64,000 nt of DNA, taken from the NCBI RefSeq assembly GCF_016026235.1, contig NZ_CP065613.1; one strand, 5' to 3'. The notes beneath the pieces were generated by a model. That model made no database searches. It saw nothing but the letters and a program-made list of their open reading frames with translations, and was not told the origin of the DNA. The position numbers and the translations under genes were made by a program. Position 1 is the stretch's first letter, and the number at the start of each line of letters is the position of its first letter. Shown here piece by piece: positions 26,161 to 38,838 of this stretch. The DNA comes from Escherichia coli (lineage in GTDB: Bacteria; Pseudomonadota; Gammaproteobacteria; Enterobacterales; Enterobacteriaceae).

Positions 26161-26190
26161 AATGCCGCCGATGGCGGCATTGCTTTTTTT
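26161..26190. terminator. Bidirectional terminator between ydfZ and ydfI
   Basis: Hairpin AATGCCGCCGATGGCGGCATT followed by T7. Confidence 0.6.
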
Positions 26191-27649
26191 ACTTCACGGA
26201 ATATTTCGCCACGGTCGCTTTCGCGCCATGCGCTAATAAAGACAAGTACGCTTCCGTCACTTTTGCAGTAAACAAGCTATTGTCTGGCAAATCATCACCA
26301 AAGATTGCCTTAATCGCCAGCAATGACTGGACGCGCGCTTTCCCTTCGGCACTACTTTGTACAGCCTTCTGAATAACAGGTAACAGTGGGTCACTGATTT
26401 CTATCGGATTTCCCTGTTCATCAACACCACCGACATAACGCATCCAACCCGCGACGCCCAGCGCCAGCAGATCGAACTTGCTGTCATGCGCCAGATGCCA
26501 GCGAACAGAATCCAACATCCGCTGTGGCAATTTCTGGCTACCATCCATCGCAATCTGCCAGGTTCGATGACGTAACGCCGGGTTGCTATAGCGTTCAATT
26601 AATCGGTTAGCGTAATCTTGCAAATCAACGCCCTGCACTTTCAGCGTCGGCGCTTGTTCCTGCAACATCAAGCCATACGCCGCATAACGATAATGTTCAT
26701 CTTCCATGCAGTCATTAATGTGCTGATATCCAGCAAGATAACCCAAATACGCCAGGAATGAATGACTGCCGTTGAGCATGCGCAACTTCATCTCTTCATA
26801 AGGCAGCACATCACTAACCAGTTCGGCTCCCGCTTTTTCCCATTCTGGACGTCCGGCAACAAAGTTATCTTCTATTACCCACTGGCGGAAAGGTTCACAG
26901 GCAACGCCCGCAGGATCGCCCACACCGGTAAGTTGTTCGATTTTCGCCAGCGTATCCTCTGTCACTGCGGGCACAATACGGTCCACCATTGTTGATGGGA
27001 AAGTCACGTTATCTTCGATCCATTGTGCCAGTTTTTCATCAACGGCTTGCGCGTAGGAAGTGACAACGTCACGCATAACATGACCGTTTTCTGGCATGTT
27101 GTCACATGACATGACGGTAAATGCGGGAAGTCCTGCCGCTTTACGGCGAGCCAGCGCCTCAACAATCACCCCTGTTGCTGTTTTCGGCTGGTGGGGATTT
27201 TGCACGTCGGCAACGACCATCGGGTGATCGAGCATTAACTGTCCGGTCGCCGGAGAGTGGAAATACCCTTTTTCGGTGATTGTCAGAGAGACAATCGCGA
27301 TTTGTGGTTCACACATCGCAGCCAACACGGTTTCTAAGCCATCCATCTGTACGTGCAAGGCTTTTTTAACGACGCCAACGACGCGAGCCGTCCACGCATC
27401 GGCCGACATTTCCGCAACGGTATAAAGATTATCTTGCTGTTGTAAATCGGCAATTTGCTGTTCGCCACCGATTAAGTTGACCTCATAATATCCCCAGTCA
27501 CTGAAATGTTCTGTAGCAAGAATATCGGCATACACGCCCTGATGCGCACGGTGAAATGCACCAAAGCCTAAATGAACAATTCTTGGGGCCAGGTTATTAC
27601 GATCATAAACAGGGAGTGTCGCTTTTGCTGATAACAAATTATTTCCCAT
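26189..27649 (-). CDS. ydfI: Mannitol-dehydrogenase-family oxidoreductase YdfI
   Basis: 486-aa ORF, Rossmann-like N-terminus. Confidence 0.85.
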
Positions 27650-27738: not shown

Positions 27739-29022
27739 TTAAAGACTTCTGGAAGGTTGCGCAGCTCTTACAACACGCGGTTGATCTTCCGCAGCGTCTT
27801 CCAGCGCACTTAAATCACGGTCTTTCACTTCTGGCATTTTCAGCGCAGAGATTAAACCAATCACTGAATATGCCATGATCATAATGGCGATCGGATACCA
27901 GGATTCCGTCATGGTGCAGAAAATACCCGCCAGGATAGGACCAAAACCGGAAGCGATAAGACCACCAATTTCTTTAGAAATAGCCATCCGGGTAAAGCGG
28001 TTTTTACAGCCGAACATTTCTGCCATGGTAATGTTTTCCAGAGCAAATAATCCCAGCACCGCACAGTTATGAATCACAATCAGTGCAACCATAATGGTGC
28101 TCGGGGCATAGCTTTTATCTACGATGATAGAAAGCATTGGCCATGCCAGCACAATCGCGGAGGTATTCATAATAATATACGGGATCCGGCGACCAATTTT
28201 ATCGGATAACCAACCAAGGAACGGAATGGTCATAAAGCCGAGAATCGAACTAATCATCAATGCATCTGTTGGAATTGCTTTGTTAAACAATAACGTCTGC
28301 ACTAAATAGCCTGCAAGGAAAGTCTGAATTAACCCGGAGTTACCCGCCTGACCAAAACGCAGCCCTGTTGCCAGCCAGAAGGATTTGCTCTGGAACATGC
28401 TACCAGCAGGTGCAGGTTTTGCTGTCGGTTGGTTGCTGTCATTAACCTTCTCAAAGACCGGGCTTTCTTTCAGATTCATACGTAACCAGATAGCAAAGAC
28501 CATCACGACAACGCTCGCCAGGAACGGTATACGCCATCCCCACGCCAGCAGTTCCTCTTTACTGAGAATGAAGAACATAAAGGCCCAGATTGCCGTTGCG
28601 CTCAAGGTTCCGCAGTTAGTTCCCATAGCTACAAATGAGGAGATAATTCCGCGCTTACCTTTTGGCGCATATTCCGCCAGCATCGTACCGGCACCGGAAA
28701 TTTCCGCACCTGCACCCAATCCCTGAATAATACGCAGCGTCACCAGCAAAATGGGTGCAAAAACACCAATCTGTGCATAGGTCGGTAACACACCAATTAA
28801 GGTGGTACAGATCCCCATCATGGTGATGGTAATAAAGAGCACTTTTTTACGCCCTATTCTGTCGCCCATTTTGCCGAAAATAAATGCTCCGACAATACGC
28901 GCCACATAACCTGCACCGTAGGTTCCCATTGCCAAAATTAACGCCATTGCCGTTGATGATTCAGGAAAAAATATTTCATGAAACACTAACGCTGCGCCGA
29001 GCGAATATAACTGGAAATCCAT
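27739..29022 (-). CDS. ydfJ: MFS metabolite transporter YdfJ, apparently N-terminally truncated at the prophage junction
   Basis: 427-aa ORF starts inside the first TM helix with a stop two codons upstream in frame; ProP-like MFS proteins carry about 25 more N-terminal residues. Confidence 0.75.
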   Translation of the reverse strand: MDFQLYSLGAALVFHEIFFPESSTAMALILAMGTYGAGYVARIVGAFIFGKMGDRIGRKKVLFITITMMGICTTLIGVLPTYAQIGVFAPILLVTLRIIQGLGAGAEISGAGTMLAEYAPKGKRGIISSFVAMGTNCGTLSATAIWAFMFFILSKEELLAWGWRIPFLASVVVMVFAIWLRMNLKESPVFEKVNDSNQPTAKPAPAGSMFQSKSFWLATGLRFGQAGNSGLIQTFLAGYLVQTLLFNKAIPTDALMISSILGFMTIPFLGWLSDKIGRRIPYIIMNTSAIVLAWPMLSIIVDKSYAPSTIMVALIVIHNCAVLGLFALENITMAEMFGCKNRFTRMAISKEIGGLIASGFGPILAGIFCTMTESWYPIAIMIMAYSVIGLISALKMPEVKDRDLSALEDAAEDQPRVVRAAQPSRSL

Positions 29023-29626
29023 AATTCACAGGTGTTTTTTCCCATCCTGTGGTTTCCTTGGCGTTTTCTAGGTTTTTTCAGATAGTTGCATTTTTTAAAA
29101 AGCATCCTAAGTTCGATCTCAGTGTCTATCTGGGGCCTATTTCTGTCCCATATATGCCCCAAAAAAAACTCCCCAACAGATAAGTAGTTTTTTCATGGAT
29201 TTATGCGTAAAATCAAGAACGGCTGGAAATCATTCAATACTCACACTATCGAAAAATTTACCAGCCAACCGCAGCACGTTCTTGCATAAGGCGTGTCTGC
29301 GGTTTTTCAACTATTCAGATACATCACTCCCATCACATTCATTCCTCCGCATCAAAGGCATATAGGCTATATCACCTTGATATTTTTCTTTTTCAGATAA
29401 AAACTGTTATCTATGTATACTTTTAAACCCAATCCGTGTAGAGTCTCTGCATAAGATAGTTTACAGTTGCCGCTTCAGCTTGCGCCATAAACCGCCTGAT
29501 TTTTGCTGCCACCTGTTAGCATTCCTGTATACCTGAAACGACAATGTTTATCTACGAACTTTAAGAACACCCAAGATAAAAATTGTCAACTATATCATAT
29601 ATAACACATTACTAATTCGAGGCTAT

Positions 29627-29740
29627 ATGAACAGCATACTGATAATCACATCTCTCCTTATCATATTCAGCATTTTTAGTCATGCCCTAATAAAATTAGG
29701 GATTGGCATATCCAATAACCCAGACAAAACCGATGTATAA
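29627..29740 (+). CDS. Candidate small hydrophobic protein (37 aa) upstream of ydfK
   Basis: ATG with a GAGG Shine-Dalgarno 7 nt upstream; encodes [37 protein letters not shown] (one predicted TM helix). Confidence 0.3.
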
Positions 29741-29775
29741 GTCAACATATCCTGAATCAGACATACAATATCGCA

Positions 29776-30042
29776 ATGAAAATCAATAATATTTTAAGGA
29801 ATATCTTCATGAAATCAAAAGACACCCTAAAGTGGTTCCCTGCGCAGCTTCCTGAAGTAAGAATTATCCTAGGGGATGCTGTAGTGGAAGTAGCAAAACA
29901 GGGAAGACCTATCAATACCAGAACATTGCTTGATTACATTGAAGGAAACATAAAGAAAAAATCATGGCTGGATAACAAAGAATTATTACAAACAGCGATA
30001 TCAGTTCTTAAAGACAACCAAAATTTAAATGGTAAAATGTAA
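29776..30042 (+). CDS. ydfK: Prophage cold-shock-associated protein YdfK (alternative start at 29809 giving 77 aa)
   Basis: 88-aa ORF; internal MKSKDTLKWFPAQLPEVRIILGDAVVEVAK... matches YdfK/YnaE-type prophage proteins as recalled. Confidence 0.75.
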   Translation: MKINNILRNIFMKSKDTLKWFPAQLPEVRIILGDAVVEVAKQGRPINTRTLLDYIEGNIKKKSWLDNKELLQTAISVLKDNQNLNGKM

Positions 30043-30358
30043 TATAATAAACTTACTTTTTTATCATTTTTCCACTTTAACAACATTTTGCTCCACTTTT
30101 CCACGACCAAACAACTTGAAATCTGGTTAAAATAACACGCAACACTATTCTTCTTCCTTGAGTCCGCCCGGAACTCGAAAAACAAACCGAGTTAAAGCCA
30201 TTTTTCACAAAATCGATTTTGGGTCTCACCAAAATTACGGGGTTGCATACGCATTCGTTTATTTTCGAACGTGTACATACAAATATGCACAAAAATAATC
30301 ATAATTATTTTCTGAGATGCATTATGATATGAACACCAATTTCGTATAGAGTCTCACT

Positions 30359-30949
30359 ATGTCTCGAATTTTTGCTTACTGTCGGATATCAACGCTGGAT
30401 CAGACCACCGAAAATCAACGCCGGGAAATCGAAAGTGCAGGTTTTAAAATCAAACCTCAGCAAATAATCGAAGAACACATTAGCGGCTCAGCAGCAACCA
30501 GTGAGCGTCCTGGTTTTAACCGGTTGCTTGCTCGCCTGAAATGTGGTGATCAATTGATTGTGACAAAACTGGATCGCCTTGGTTGTAATGCAATGGATAT
30601 CAGGAAAACAGTGGAACAACTGACCGAAACAGGTATCAGAGTGCATTGCTTAGCATTGGGTGGCATTGACCTGACCAGTCCAACAGGAAAAATGATGATG
30701 CAAGTAATTTCAGCAGTCGCTGAATTTGAACGAGACCTTTTACTTGAACGCACTCATTCCGGGATAGTAAGAGCCCGCGGCGCAGGGAAACGTTTTGGTC
30801 GACCACCTGTGTTAAATGAAGAACAGAAACAGGTGGTATTCGAACGAATTAAGTCAGGTGTAAGTATAAGTGCCATTGCCCGGGAATTCAAAACCTCGCG
30901 GCAAACCATTTTAAGAGCCAAAGCAAAACTTCAGACACCTGACATATAA
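30359..30949 (+). CDS. pinQ: Serine-recombinase DNA invertase Pin (Gin/Hin/Cin family)
   Basis: 196-aa [23 protein letters not shown]... with catalytic Ser in the RIS motif and C-terminal HTH. Confidence 0.9.
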
Positions 30950-31046
30950 AAAATAATCTCGGTGTGAGATGCTTTACGTCTTCCAAGCCCCCTTCCTTGC
31001 CGTAAATGGAAAGATACATCTAATTATAGAATTTATATGTTTTACC

Positions 31047-31622
31047 CTACGGCAGTGCTGGCCATTCAATATCCTGTGCAGTTGACGTATCAACACGGTT
31101 CAGCAATACCCGATACTTTTTCCATGCTTCCAGCAACGAGATTTCTTCCTCCGTTGCAATTTCCAGATCTGCAGCATCCTGAAGCGGCGCAATATGCTCA
31201 CTGGCTACCTGCATCAGGTTGTTTTTTGTTTCTTCCGCCTCCCGGATCCGGAACAGTTTTTCTGCTTCCGTATCCTTCACCCAGGCTGTGCCGTTCCACT
31301 TCTGAAACTCCCCTTCCGGCGATAACCAGGTAACATTTTCCGGTAACGGACCGAGTTCAGAAATAAATAACGCGTCGCCGGAAGCCACGTCATAAACCGT
31401 TTTACCCCGATGATCTTCAACGAGATGCCACGATGACTCATCACTGTTGAAAACAGCCACGAAGCCAGCCGGAATATCTGGCGGTGCAATATCGGTACTG
31501 TTTGCTGGCAGACCTGTATGAGGCGGAATATATGCATCACCTTCACCAATAAATTCATTAGTTCCGGCCAGCAGATTATAAATTTTTATGGTCCGTGGTT
31601 GTTCACTCATTCTGAATGCCAT
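31047..31622 (-). CDS. tfaQ: Tail fiber assembly protein Tfa
   Basis: 191-aa ORF directly downstream of the stf C-terminal segment. Confidence 0.85.
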
Positions 31623-34600
31623 TATGCAAGCCTCACAATATAGTTAAATGCGATGTTTTTGACGGTGTTTTCCGCGTTACCAGCAGCGTTAACGGTGATG
31701 GTGTGTCCATGTGAACCAATCGCAACGGAGTGCGTATGAGCACCAATACCGACAGTATGCGCGTGTGCACCTGCAGATGCTGCTGTGCCGGACAGTGAGT
31801 GGCTATGATTACCATCTGTACTGGTATTAGCTAACCACCCCGTAGACATACCTACTGAGCCTTGTACACCCCAGGTATTTTGACCTGAGCTTGTATAACC
31901 ATATTGATAAGTATCTTTAAAAACACTGGGGTTAAATCGACGGCCATCTCTATGGCTGTGATTACCAGCTGCATTCGTGCTGCCACTTAAACTATGGGTA
32001 TGCGCACCAGTGTTATTCGTGGATTTAGTGCCGTAATCAAACGACGATGTGGTTTTCGTCCCCAAATCCGTACTGGATGCGCTGGCGCTGTGGGTATGCG
32101 ATTTAATGCCGTCCTATTCCTGAGACAATACGGCCCGACCACTGGTAGGTTTGCCCTTAATCGTCCAGCCACGCATATCAGGGATCACGCCTGACGGATA
32201 AGCCGCTGCAAGTTTCGGGTATGCAGATTTGTCAAAAGTCTGCCCCTGCATCAGGGCATAGCCAGACGGAACGGTATCTGATGGCCACGGGATTGGTGCA
32301 CCGACTGGATAAAACTCTGCAGGAGGATGAGCCGAGGTGTAAAGCTGCGCCCACGGCGACCAGTTTGCGTCGGTCGTATCCCGTCGTGAACGAATAAATG
32401 CCGGAGCATGAGCACCGCTTGTACCACTCCAGCCGATGAGTAACTCACCTTCGCCAACGGCTGTCATCCCTTTCAGGTGAATGATATTTCCATACGCTGT
32501 TGGATATCCGTTGTTATACACCTCGTATAACTCAAGACCTGTTGCCCCCTGCGTATTGTCTGTCAGCGCGGTTACCCGACCTTTTGAAGACAGATTAACT
32601 GATGATACTGCTGTTCCACCTGACGGTAACGCCCCGATCTCTGATGCCGTTGGCTTATTTCTGGAGTTATAGTCCCTTCGCCAGCCAGGTGAATAATCTG
32701 TTCCGTGATTAATATAGGTAAACTGGGCGTTAGTTGTTCCACCACCAGTGGAGGTGGTCGGTGTGGTAATGCGGATCGTCATCGCTGACTTTATCCCCAT
32801 TACTTCAATGACAGCTCCGGCGAGATGAATATTACCGCAGTCAGTATCAGTAATGATTTTATTATTGCCATAAGACCAGGAACCCTTGCACATCCAGTAG
32901 GGATGGTTAAATGCTCCCTGAGAATCCAGCCACTCGATAAACTGTGCAGTCGTCCAGTTTCCTGTTATTGTGCTTACTGACCCACCAAAGGCACGGCAGG
33001 CACCAATATTTTTCGTAAAGGTGTCTTTGCCAGGGATATCCGCACCGTTCTGATCTTTCTGCAGACGTTTCTCAGCATTGTCATAGGCTGTTTTTACTGC
33101 CTTTGGTGTCGCGGCAAGCGTTTCAGACGTGCTGTTGGTCGCGCTGCTTAGCTGGATTATCCCTTTCTGTGCTGTCGTTGCATCCTGTGCGGTGTATTTC
33201 CCGTTAGCCAGGTCATACGCGGCCTTAACGGCTTTTGGTGTTGCCGCCAGTGACTCGGAAGTGCTGTTAGTCGCACTACTGAGCTGTACTATCCCCTTTT
33301 TCGTCGTGCTCGCATCCTCAAGCGCCACAGCGGATGCAATATCCTCTGCCCGTTTTGCTGCTGTCTCGGCGCGCGTTGCTGCGGATTCTGCCGTACTCTT
33401 GCTCTGTGCTGCCGCCGTCGCACTGCCAGCAGCCTCTGTTGCCTTCGTGGATGCCGTCGTGGCGCTGCCCTTCGCTGCTGACGCTTGTCTGGTCGCCTCA
33501 TCTTTTGAAGCAGACGCCGATGAGGCCGATGACGCCGCCGAACTGGCGGACGATGCGGCAGCCGTTTTTGAGGATTCTGCGCTGGTTTCCGACGCTTTCG
33601 CGTTCGTTTCGGATGTCTTCGCTGCGGAAGCTGACCTCGCTGCTGCGCTGGCCTGTTCAGTGGCTTCGCCAGCCTTCGTTGTGGCTGTTGAAGCGGATGA
33701 TGCGGCGCTTTCTGCCGATTTTCCGGCGGCGATGGCACTGGCTGAGGCCTGCCCGGCACTTGTTGACGCGGCACTGGCAGACGACGCAGCCGCTGTTTTT
33801 GAGCCTGCCGCAGCTGAGGCGCTCTGTCCCGCTGCCGTCTCAGAAGACCTGGCGTTCGTCTCGGACGTTTTTGCCGCCTTCGCGGAATTTGCTGCCGCCG
33901 TTGCCGAGGAAGCTGCGCTACTGGCGCTCGAGGATGCGTTCGTTTCTGATGATTTTGCCGCCTCTTTTGAAGCCGACGCATCCTGGGCTGAGGTGGCAGC
34001 TTCTGACGCTTTCGTAGTCGCGGTGGATGCAGAAGTGGCTGCTGATTGTTGTGACGCTGCAGCATTCGTTTCTGACGTTTTCGCGGCACTGGCACTGGTA
34101 GCTGCCGCGCTTTTTGAGGACTCTGCAGCGGCAGCACTTTTTGATGCTTCAGTGGCCTTTGCTGATGCCGTTCCTGCGCTGGAAGACGCTGACTGAGCCG
34201 ACGACGCGGCCTGTCCGGCTGACGTGCTGGCTGCGCGTGCTAAGCCTGCAGCATCAGTTGCATGGGTTGCCGCCTCACGGGCTGATGTGCCGGCATCGCT
34301 GGCTGACTTCTTCGCGGCTGCTGTGTTCTGTGCCACCGCGGACGCGTTACGCGCCACCTCTTCCACCATCAGTTCAAAACGTCGCAGTGCCTCCGGACGG
34401 GCATCATCCTCCGTCATGGCACCGAGAAAATCATTCAGCGTACCGGGTTGAGAATCTTCATACACGGTGATGGTCCCGGCATGTGACGGCGGGAATCCTT
34501 CCACCAACAGAATAACGCTGTACTGACCGTACTCAACGTCCATGCTGTAACGCCCGGCTTCATCCGGATTTTCTGAGGCCAGCGTGTTCACCACCACCGC

Positions 34601-34693
34601 GGTGCTGTTACGTTTTGCTTTCAGCTGGATTGTGCAGTTCTGTACCGGTTTTCCTGTGCCGTCTTTCAGTACACCTGAAATCTTTACTGCCAT
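31622..34693 (-). pseudogene. stfQ: Side tail fiber Stf, interrupted by an in-frame amber codon at 32114-32116
   Basis: 873-aa ORF (lambda-Stf-like [26 protein letters not shown]... start at 34693) and a 147-aa ORF with His-rich tail-fiber repeats share one frame, separated only by TAG. Confidence 0.7.
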
Positions 34694-34756: not shown

Positions 34757-35356
34757 TCAGAACTTATAACCGACACCCACGATGAAACCGTCAGTGCGCC
34801 AGTCGCCACTGCCGGAACCTTCATAAGCAAGGTCAATGGCCACGGATTCGGTCGGGTTAAACTGCACGCCAGCTCCCCACGCCAGAGACGTGTTGCTGTG
34901 GCGACCGTCATCACTTCCGGTCAGCACGTCGTGCGTTTTCCCCTTGTTGTCAGTTACGCGGAGATAATCCCCGGAGAAAGTCGACACACGGCTGTAAGCC
35001 ATACCCGCCATCGCATACGCGCTGAACCATTCATTCACGCGCACAGACGGCCCCACCATCACGCTGAACCAGCGGTTACGCACGGAATCTTCATGCCAGC
35101 GGGTATCGCTGTAACGGGTAAGCTGGCGATTCTTGTCTCCTGCATAGCTGAATGACGTCACCAGCCCCAGTGTGTCCGTAAACTCATAACGGTATTTCAC
35201 GTTAATCCCGTTAAGATCATCGCTGCCGGGAACGTTCGTCGAGGCATGAAGATACCCCGCGCTCAGCGTGGACTGATGTTCAGATGCCCATGCAGGCGCA
35301 CCGGATACGGCCAGACAAATGGCTGCGGACAAAATGGCGGCATAAAGTTTACGCAT
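34757..35356 (-). CDS. lom: Lom-like outer-membrane protein (Ail/Lom/OmpX family)
   Basis: 199-aa ORF with signal peptide and beta-barrel pattern, ending ...VGVGYKF. Confidence 0.85.

Positions 35357-35425: not shown

Positions 35426-38838
<3,413 letters not shown>

Follow-up and report, generated by a model that had tools for sequence, protein, structure and literature searches.

The window analysed here is a 64-kb stretch of an Escherichia coli chromosome that carries a Qin-type lambdoid prophage integrated in ydfJ. Our analysis concerns pinQ, a prophage gene for a small serine recombinase that is located between ydfK and tfaQ, the latter being followed by the side tail-fibre gene stf (Table 1). 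The PinQ protein combines the Pfam domains Resolvase (2.5e-36) and HTH_7. The locus matches the Qin prophage of E. coli K-12 gene for gene, with the order ydfK-pin-tfa-stf and the integration in ydfJ common to both, and the two PinQ proteins differ at 2 of 196 residues. However, K-12 Qin has lost the near-full-length stf, lom and J genes that the window prophage retains. The region 29500-33000 is identical to that of strain SCU-316 but for one base, and isolated phages, among them mEp460, 2H10, Tritos and HannyBb, carry stf, tfa and pin in the same arrangement and encode a Pin that is 100% identical. The annotation of pinQ, and of pinR in the Rac prophage, as DNA invertase genes is of long standing and goes back to approximately 38% identity to the Pin protein of e14.

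In line with this annotation, an earlier note on this DNA had described pin as a Gin/Cin/Pin-type invertase gene left beside a decayed tail-fibre switch. Invertases of the Gin/Cin/Pin/Hin type are indeed small serine recombinases that adjoin tail-fibre genes, as PinQ does. Their systems also comprise 26-bp gix-type sites, an invertible segment and alternative fibre cassettes, but none of these is present in the window. A further component is a Fis-bound recombinational enhancer within the invertase gene, towards its 5' end (positions 7679-7750 of the P1 copy, L005); at 35% protein identity, pinQ would not be expected to show homology to this P1 enhancer at the DNA level. To search the entire 64 kb by tblastn (E <= 0.01), we used the window Tfa, the C-terminal part of the window Stf (Stf-C), e14 TfaP/TfaE, Mu U and P1 U' as queries. 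This bore out the view that there is only one tfa gene and one stf C-terminus, and revealed no relic fragments of a second tfa or stf-C. The reported spacing of about 100 bp between tfa and pin was also accurate, as 97 bp separate the two stop codons. A half-site weight matrix was then compiled from the Mu gixL/gixR, P1 cixL/cixR and e14 pixL/pixR sites in sequence records. Genuine gix, cix and pix sites scored between 21.7 and 27.1 bits on this matrix (leave-one-out); the best match in the 64 kb reached 11.4 bits, compared to a maximum of 12.2 +/- 1.9 bits in shuffled windows. Hence the scan that the earlier note had proposed, when run on the whole window, gave no crossover site above chance, and no gix-like site was found at the 3' end of pin. 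The two weak gix-like matches pointed out in that note, AAACCGAG at 30184-30191 and TTCCTG at 32117-32122, do exist, but they score only −4.5 and −1.5 bits, respectively. On these scores, neither is a crossover site; AAACCGAG lies inside a transposon-type terminal inverted repeat (IR). Other inverted repeats between 29000 and 36000 were limited to matches of 71-94% over 17-28 nt, none of them flanking stf-C/tfa, and no long inverted repeat of high identity was found around this segment. These data show that a local switch is absent next to pin: no flippable segment adjoins the gene, and pin is an orphan within its own prophage.

The comparison of PinQ with its relatives does not agree with the assignment to the Gin/Cin/Pin invertases. 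PinQ shares 38% identity with PinE and 35% with both Gin and Cin, against 83% with a recombinase of a ColV IncF plasmid, 71% with one of a Klebsiella IncFII plasmid and 79% with a Shewanella protein. Homologous DNA was found in 1835 plasmid records. In a Klebsiella michiganensis plasmid (L014) the related gene is divergent from a Tn3-family transposase gene, while in Pantoea (L012) it lies just downstream of one; in Enterobacter (L011) it is divergent from parA-parG, on a Klebsiella plasmid it is found near a gene for a MipZ-type ParA-like ATPase and repA, and on ColV plasmids it is located between insertion sequence (IS) elements and an iron-transport operon. No tail-fibre genes were present beside the plasmid and transposon relatives examined. 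The genomic contexts of the PinQ relatives are those of resolvases, and the catalytic and helix-turn-helix (HTH) domains of PinQ are shared with the resolvases of Tn3-family res/TnpR modules (Tn3, gamma-delta, Tn21) and with parA-adjacent plasmid resolvases. NCBIfam was not discriminating: neither PinQ and PinE nor the transposon relative matched any of its families above the cut-off. Chimeric proteins, encoded on a few short metagenome contigs (P0004-P0007), have a plasmid-like N-terminal half that includes an arginine at the catalytic position discussed below, and a prophage-like C-terminal half; these may be recombinants or assembly chimeras.

The pinQ gene lies within a discrete unit of 834 bp (positions 30159-30992) with the proposed layout IR-res-tnpR-IR, in which res denotes a resolvase recombination site and tnpR a resolvase gene. 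In the ColV copy (L006), the gene and its res are enclosed by 38-bp inverted repeats with GGGG...TAAG ends, the left one at 5844-5881 reading GGGGTCAGTTTGGAATTCGGAAAATAAACCATGTTAAG and the right one at 6658-6695 being the reverse complement of CTTAGCGTGGGATATTTTCCGTTTTCCAAGCGGACCCC. This intact ColV unit measures 852 bp, with its res at about 5940-6058 and the pinQ homologue at 6059-6649. Ends of the GGGG...TAAG form are characteristic of Tn3-family elements. Beside tnpA of the K. michiganensis transposon, the inner end of the repeat (...TTATCCCACGCTAAG) is found again, and pieces of the repeat ends alone recur in many plasmids. Tn3-family modules have 38-bp ends of this type and a 5-bp flanking repeat; the window unit has degenerate ends, which are flanked by a direct repeat of TTCCT. 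This TTCCT repeat is also present in the prophage lineage with 85% identity (L010), and 5-bp duplications, for example AGCAA direct repeats, are known from Tn3-family elements (PMC13367494). When the window was aligned with the ColV copy, identity was 32% in the left flank outside the unit, 68% in the left repeat, 66% in the spacer that follows it, 69% in the res remnant, 83% in the gene, 88% in the spacer between gene and repeat, 69% in the right repeat and 22% in the right flank, so that the homology begins and ends exactly at the ends of the repeats. Because the limits of homology, the terminal repeats and the putative TTCCT duplication coincide, these comparisons indicate that pinQ arrived as an 834-bp IR-res-tnpR-IR cassette, probably by transposition, and was not left behind by a Gin-like switch.

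A transposase gene is adjacent to the related gene in Pantoea and on the K. michiganensis plasmid, but the window unit contains none. In its build it resembles the short non-autonomous units with Tn3-type repeats, among which IS101 has a functional res (PMC13367494, PMC4133298). Some of these short units carry a res site (PMC13367494; PMC4133298); unlike the IS101-type units, the pinQ unit carries the resolvase gene as well, and its phage copy is decayed and probably immobile. As further observations on these ends, an IS4321-family (IS110-like) element adjoins a terminal-repeat remnant about 80 bp past the end of tnpA of the K. michiganensis transposon, which carries a PinQ-clade resolvase (L018, NZ_CP102104.1, 232400-233000), and an IS110-family element is located just left of the ColV-plasmid cassette (L006 4471-5481).

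The position of pin inside this unit bears on the idea that an ancestral switch of the type Sc-[Sv-U-U'-Sv']-pin lost its second cassette and both crossover sites and left pin stranded. The orientation of the genes would suit such a fossil, since pin converges on tfa in the same way as P1 cin, whose stop codon is overlapped by cixL, converges on S and U. Moreover, residues 111-171 of Mu S, which belong to its constant part, match residues 504-564 of the window Stf with 64% identity (61 residues, E = 1e-19). This alignment ends inside gixL, and at the homologous position one half-site is left (TTTACGAAAA, 33010-33019, 10.6 bits) with its partner absent. However, the Stf-Mu boundary belongs to the fibre gene: it is a trace of fibre-module shuffling that is independent of pin. 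The affinity of Pin to the plasmid and Tn3-family recombinases, the inverted repeats and TTCCT repeats that delimit the unit, and the absence from the 64 kb of both a second tfa/stf-C relic and a gix-like site all speak against a fossil switch, which we regard as quite improbable. A decayed tail-fibre switch is also at odds with the identical Pin and layout of the isolated phages. No significant similarity was detected between e14 StfP and the window Stf. What decayed at this locus is the recombinase module itself, namely its res crossover site, its terminal repeats and one catalytic arginine.

To define the res region of this clade, we examined seven relatives, all of which have a fixed array of three subsites upstream of the start codon. 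Subsite I is a 26-bp palindrome at about −115 that is perfect in the ColV copy (TGTCCGAAATCGACCGGTTTCGGACA), subsite II is a 32-bp inverted repeat at about −75, and subsite III covers 19-21 bp at about −32, with a TATAAT sequence between subsites II and III. Subsite I of Tn3, by comparison, measures 28 bp. An array directly upstream of the gene and overlapping its promoter is found both in Tn3-family res/TnpR modules and in the PinQ relatives; in Tn3-family res, three dimer-binding subsites with unequal spacing lie over the resolvase promoter, and strand exchange takes place at subsite I (PMC13367494). On a clade matrix built from 35 half-sites of the relatives, their own subsites I and II scored 29-32 and 27-32 bits, respectively, the two halves of subsite I in intact relatives reaching 15.8 and 16.7 bits. 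In the window, the left and right halves of subsite I scored −20.0 and 5.8 bits, subsite II reached 9.3 bits for both halves together, which does not attain the maximum of shuffled sequences (14.1 +/- 2.7 bits), and the right half-site of subsite III scored 12.1 bits, with a −10-like TATGAT just upstream of this subsite. Thus, unlike in the Tn3-family modules and the PinQ relatives, the crossover subsite is destroyed in the window copy, and no full site of the clade type exceeded the shuffle maximum anywhere in the 64 kb (half-site matrix, inner gaps of 0-14 nt). When the region 30000-31100 was scanned for promoters and terminators, the consensus matches obtained were all weak and no terminator was detected.

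A 20-bp palindrome at 30272-30291 was considered as a crossover candidate and rejected, as it arises where the remnant of subsite I adjoins the left half-site of subsite II. This palindrome, TGTACATACAAATATGCACA, is imperfect in the window and perfect in lineage L010, and could represent a residual binding site or operator.

Table 1. Positions of the pinQ unit, its components and the neighbouring prophage and host genes in the 64-kb window. Subsites and terminal repeats are compared with the ColV-plasmid copy (L006).
Feature	Position	Strand	Remarks
pinQ	30359-30949	+	intact 196-aa open reading frame; small serine recombinase of the plasmid/Tn3-family resolvase clade
Cys76 codon (TGT)	30584-30586	+	catalytic arginine position in the DRLG-R motif
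Left TTCCT direct repeat	30154-30158	.	putative target-site duplication; abuts the outer end of the left IR; same as 30993-30997
Left terminal IR, TGAGTCCGCCCGGAACTCGAAAAACAAACCGAGTTAAA	30159-30196	+	degenerate; 26/38 bases match the L006 left IR; contains AAACCGAG
Subsite I (crossover) remnant	30244-30271	+	aligns with TGTCCGAAATCGACCGGTTTCGGACA of L006
Subsite II remnant, TGCACAAAAATAATCATAATTATTTTCTGAGA	30286-30317	+	32-bp geometry as in the relatives
Subsite III remnant, TGAACACCAATTTCGTATA	30330-30348	+	aligns with TGTACACCCATTTCGTACA of L006
Right terminal IR, CTCGGTGTGAGATGCTTTACGTCTTCCAAGCCCCC	30958-30992	-	degenerate; 24/35 bases match the L006 right IR; 3-nt deletion
Right TTCCT direct repeat	30993-30997	.	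same 5 bp as the left copy
tfaQ	31047-31622	-	Pfam Caudo_TAP, 3.6e-43; sole tfa in the window by tblastn
stf	31622-34693	-	side tail-fibre gene; one frame with an amber codon at 32114-32116
Mu gixL-homologous position in stf	32993-33018	-	constant/variable boundary by Mu S homology
lom	34757-35356	-	
J	35426-38835	-	
ydfK	29809-30042	+	
ynfT	29627-29740	+	
ydfJ, truncated	27739-29022	-	N-terminus missing through prophage integration, as with Qin in K-12
ydfI	26189-27649	-	

The res remnant raises the question of whether PinQ could still act as a resolvase of dimers or cointegrates at its own upstream region. This region is homologous to the res of the relatives and has kept one half-site of 12.1 bits as well as the geometry of subsite II. 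Yet the left half of subsite I scores only −20 bits, a full site above chance is lacking, the catalytic arginine is missing, and an integrated lambdoid prophage would have no obvious need for multimer resolution. A working local resolvase is accordingly the reading to which we attach the lowest credence.

The missing arginine corresponds to Cys76 of PinQ, which aligns in solved structures with R71 of the Tn3 and gamma-delta resolvases and with the equivalent arginine of Gin. The codon concerned is CGT (Arg) in the ColV plasmid copy, and an arginine is found at this position in 114 of the 120 closest database proteins. Five of the 120 have a cysteine; these are E. coli prophage forms that represent clusters of 2148, 1066, 374, 359 and 6 sequences. 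The Cys76 forms include K-12 PinQ, the phages with an identical Pin, and the 85%-identity lineage with the same pin/tfa layout. The catalytic set of the resolvases (Y6, R8, S10, D36, R68 and R71 in Tn3 numbering) is incomplete in PinQ: Y7, R9, S11 and R73 are present, position 39 is a glutamate throughout the clade, and the R71 equivalent is Cys76. In the Tn3 resolvase, the R71A and R71K substitutions abolish recombination and lower cleavage about 1000-fold, while binding and synapsis are kept (PMC2794168).

The loss of the crossover site, the terminal repeats and the catalytic residue could mean that pinQ is a functionless gene that merely drifts, and the dN/dS ratio (nonsynonymous over synonymous change) is indeed higher within the phage clade (0.35) than between pinQ and the plasmid copy (0.16). 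However, the two Cys76 lineages differ by 34 nonsynonymous and 27 synonymous changes, which is an under-representation of nonsynonymous changes (binomial p = 2.7e-4 against neutrality). This purifying selection implies that some function was selected after the arginine-to-cysteine change. Since sequence clusters with thousands of members and isolated phages alike retain an intact reading frame, and deletion phenotypes have been published (PMC12529663), we consider a dead gene unlikely. The pin coding sequence (30359-30949) differs from its L010 counterpart (165-755) by about 10%, against about 3% for the flanking noncoding DNA and tfa; at the sequence level this suggests either mosaic recombination or a faster evolution of pin.

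Published work bears directly on the function of PinQ. Kirigo et al. (2025) reported that P-segment inversion in e14 goes up from about 30% to 88% when PinQ is overproduced and that this blocks adsorption of phage T2, that deletion of pinQ results in less inversion and lower survival of T2 infection, and that T2 infection induces expression of pinQ and pinR (PMC12529663). The suggestion of the earlier note that an orphan Pin could act on sites elsewhere is thus already in print since 2025. It holds insofar as overproduced PinQ does raise P-segment inversion, but this effect was seen only in pinE+ cells. In fact, all experiments of that study were carried out in pinE+ strains, a delta-pinE strain was locked in one orientation even though it was pinQ+ pinR+, and the supplementary table has no delta-pinE strain expressing PinQ among its entries (PMC12529663). 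The BLAST analyses of the same authors located inversions in e14 only, and never in Qin or Rac (PMC12529663).

These results can be read in two ways, each of which we regard as possible but tentative. In the first, PinQ would be an active orphan invertase that is competent in trans on the e14 pix sites, with Cys76 being tolerated. The effect of overproduction, the deletion phenotypes, the induction by T2 and the purifying selection on the reading frame all favour such an activity. It would, however, have to be reconciled with the pinE+ background of the experiments, the locked delta-pinE strain and the missing pinE-less control strain, as well as with a cysteine at a residue whose mutation abolishes recombination by the Tn3 resolvase. 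In addition, the matrix of the PinQ clade gives the pix half-sites at most 2.6 bits, and a bias of 88:12 would not be expected from the equilibrium of a simple invertase. In the second, PinQ and PinR would be derived from resolvases, would have lost catalysis and would be retained as DNA-binding factors with an indirect effect on e14: the chemistry would fall to PinE, with PinQ biasing or stimulating the reaction or locking one orientation without being an invertase itself. Such an indirect role via PinE is a live alternative to direct catalysis by PinQ at e14.

Based on the present data, we propose that pinQ is a tnpR-type resolvase gene, that it belongs to a Tn3-family element which is small, non-autonomous and decayed, and that it was never part of a tail-fibre inversion system; we assign this reading a probability of about 0.72. 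According to this proposal, an element with the layout IR-res-tnpR-IR would have transposed into the accessory region of an ancestral lambdoid phage, at a point flanked by tfa and ydfK, and would then have been inherited with that phage lineage, leaving the adjacent stf and tfa genes unaffected. Recombination at its home site would have been lost when the left half of the res crossover site disappeared, both inverted repeats degenerated and the catalytic arginine became a cysteine, whereas the pinQ reading frame would have been kept intact by purifying selection. PinQ probably survives as a DNA-binding protein, its HTH region being nearly unchanged from that of the relatives, and its likely targets are the remnants of subsites II and III that flank the pinQ promoter. 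Towards foreign sites, for instance the e14 P segment, its recombinase activity would at most be weak or partner-dependent.

Several observations weigh against the proposed origin. In a search of the PDB, PinQ matched Gin with 105 bits and gamma-delta resolvase with 83 bits, and since PinQ is slightly closer to Gin in this comparison, the sequence alone does not assign it to the resolvases. The literature contains, as far as we found, no experimentally demonstrated resolvase activity for members of the PinQ clade. The convergence of pin on tfa is shared with P1 cin, as described above, and the inversion level of 88% upon PinQ overproduction argues for a real activity despite Cys76. With respect to the unit itself, the inverted repeats in the window share no more than about 68% of their bases with intact ones, and an accidental 5-bp repeat is to be expected in about 1 in 1000 cases. 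Furthermore, an empty site with joined ydfK and tfa flanks was found in none of 5426 E. coli genomes and none of 50,697 phage records, and the exact pattern of the empty junction had no match in viral, genome and metagenome contigs, while the filled junction, which served as a positive control, was present in 13 viral contigs. In the absence of an empty site, the insertion would have to be older than all sampled copies, and it is deduced rather than observed.

To our knowledge, two points are new, namely the proposed derivation of pinQ from a Tn3-family res-tnpR cassette that has decayed, and the finding that the arginine-to-cysteine substitution of a catalytic residue is common to the entire prophage clade. 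If pinQ encodes a stranded Tn3-type resolvase without a catalytic arginine and a crossover site of its own, it is not surprising that no invertible segment adjoins it, and the invertase label given to this widespread gene misleads. The "recombinase-activated" anti-phage mechanism described in 2025 assumes that PinQ flips the e14 P segment (PMC12529663), and under the proposed origin it calls for a direct test. The pinQ unit would also be an example of a non-autonomous res-tnpR cassette that became fixed in a temperate phage lineage.

Strain-specific decay at this locus affects the tail genes: stf is interrupted by an amber codon and J by a frameshift. The Stf protein has prophage tail-fibre N-terminal, fibre-repeat and collar domains. 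The stf junction that the earlier note had placed at 32117 turned out to be an in-frame TAG on the minus strand and no junction: a single G-to-A change at window position 32116, relative to SCU-316 and 20Ec-P-124, converts a glutamine codon into a stop and truncates the fibre ahead of its His-rich distal part. In SCU-316 and 20Ec-P-124, stf is one intact gene of 1023 codons (1023 aa). In J, a 1-nt deletion near 36029 relative to 20Ec-P-124 divides the gene into open reading frames at 35989-38835 and 35426-35941, and a 3-nt in-frame deletion is present at 35540; the frame changes in J could reflect either real decay or an assembly error.

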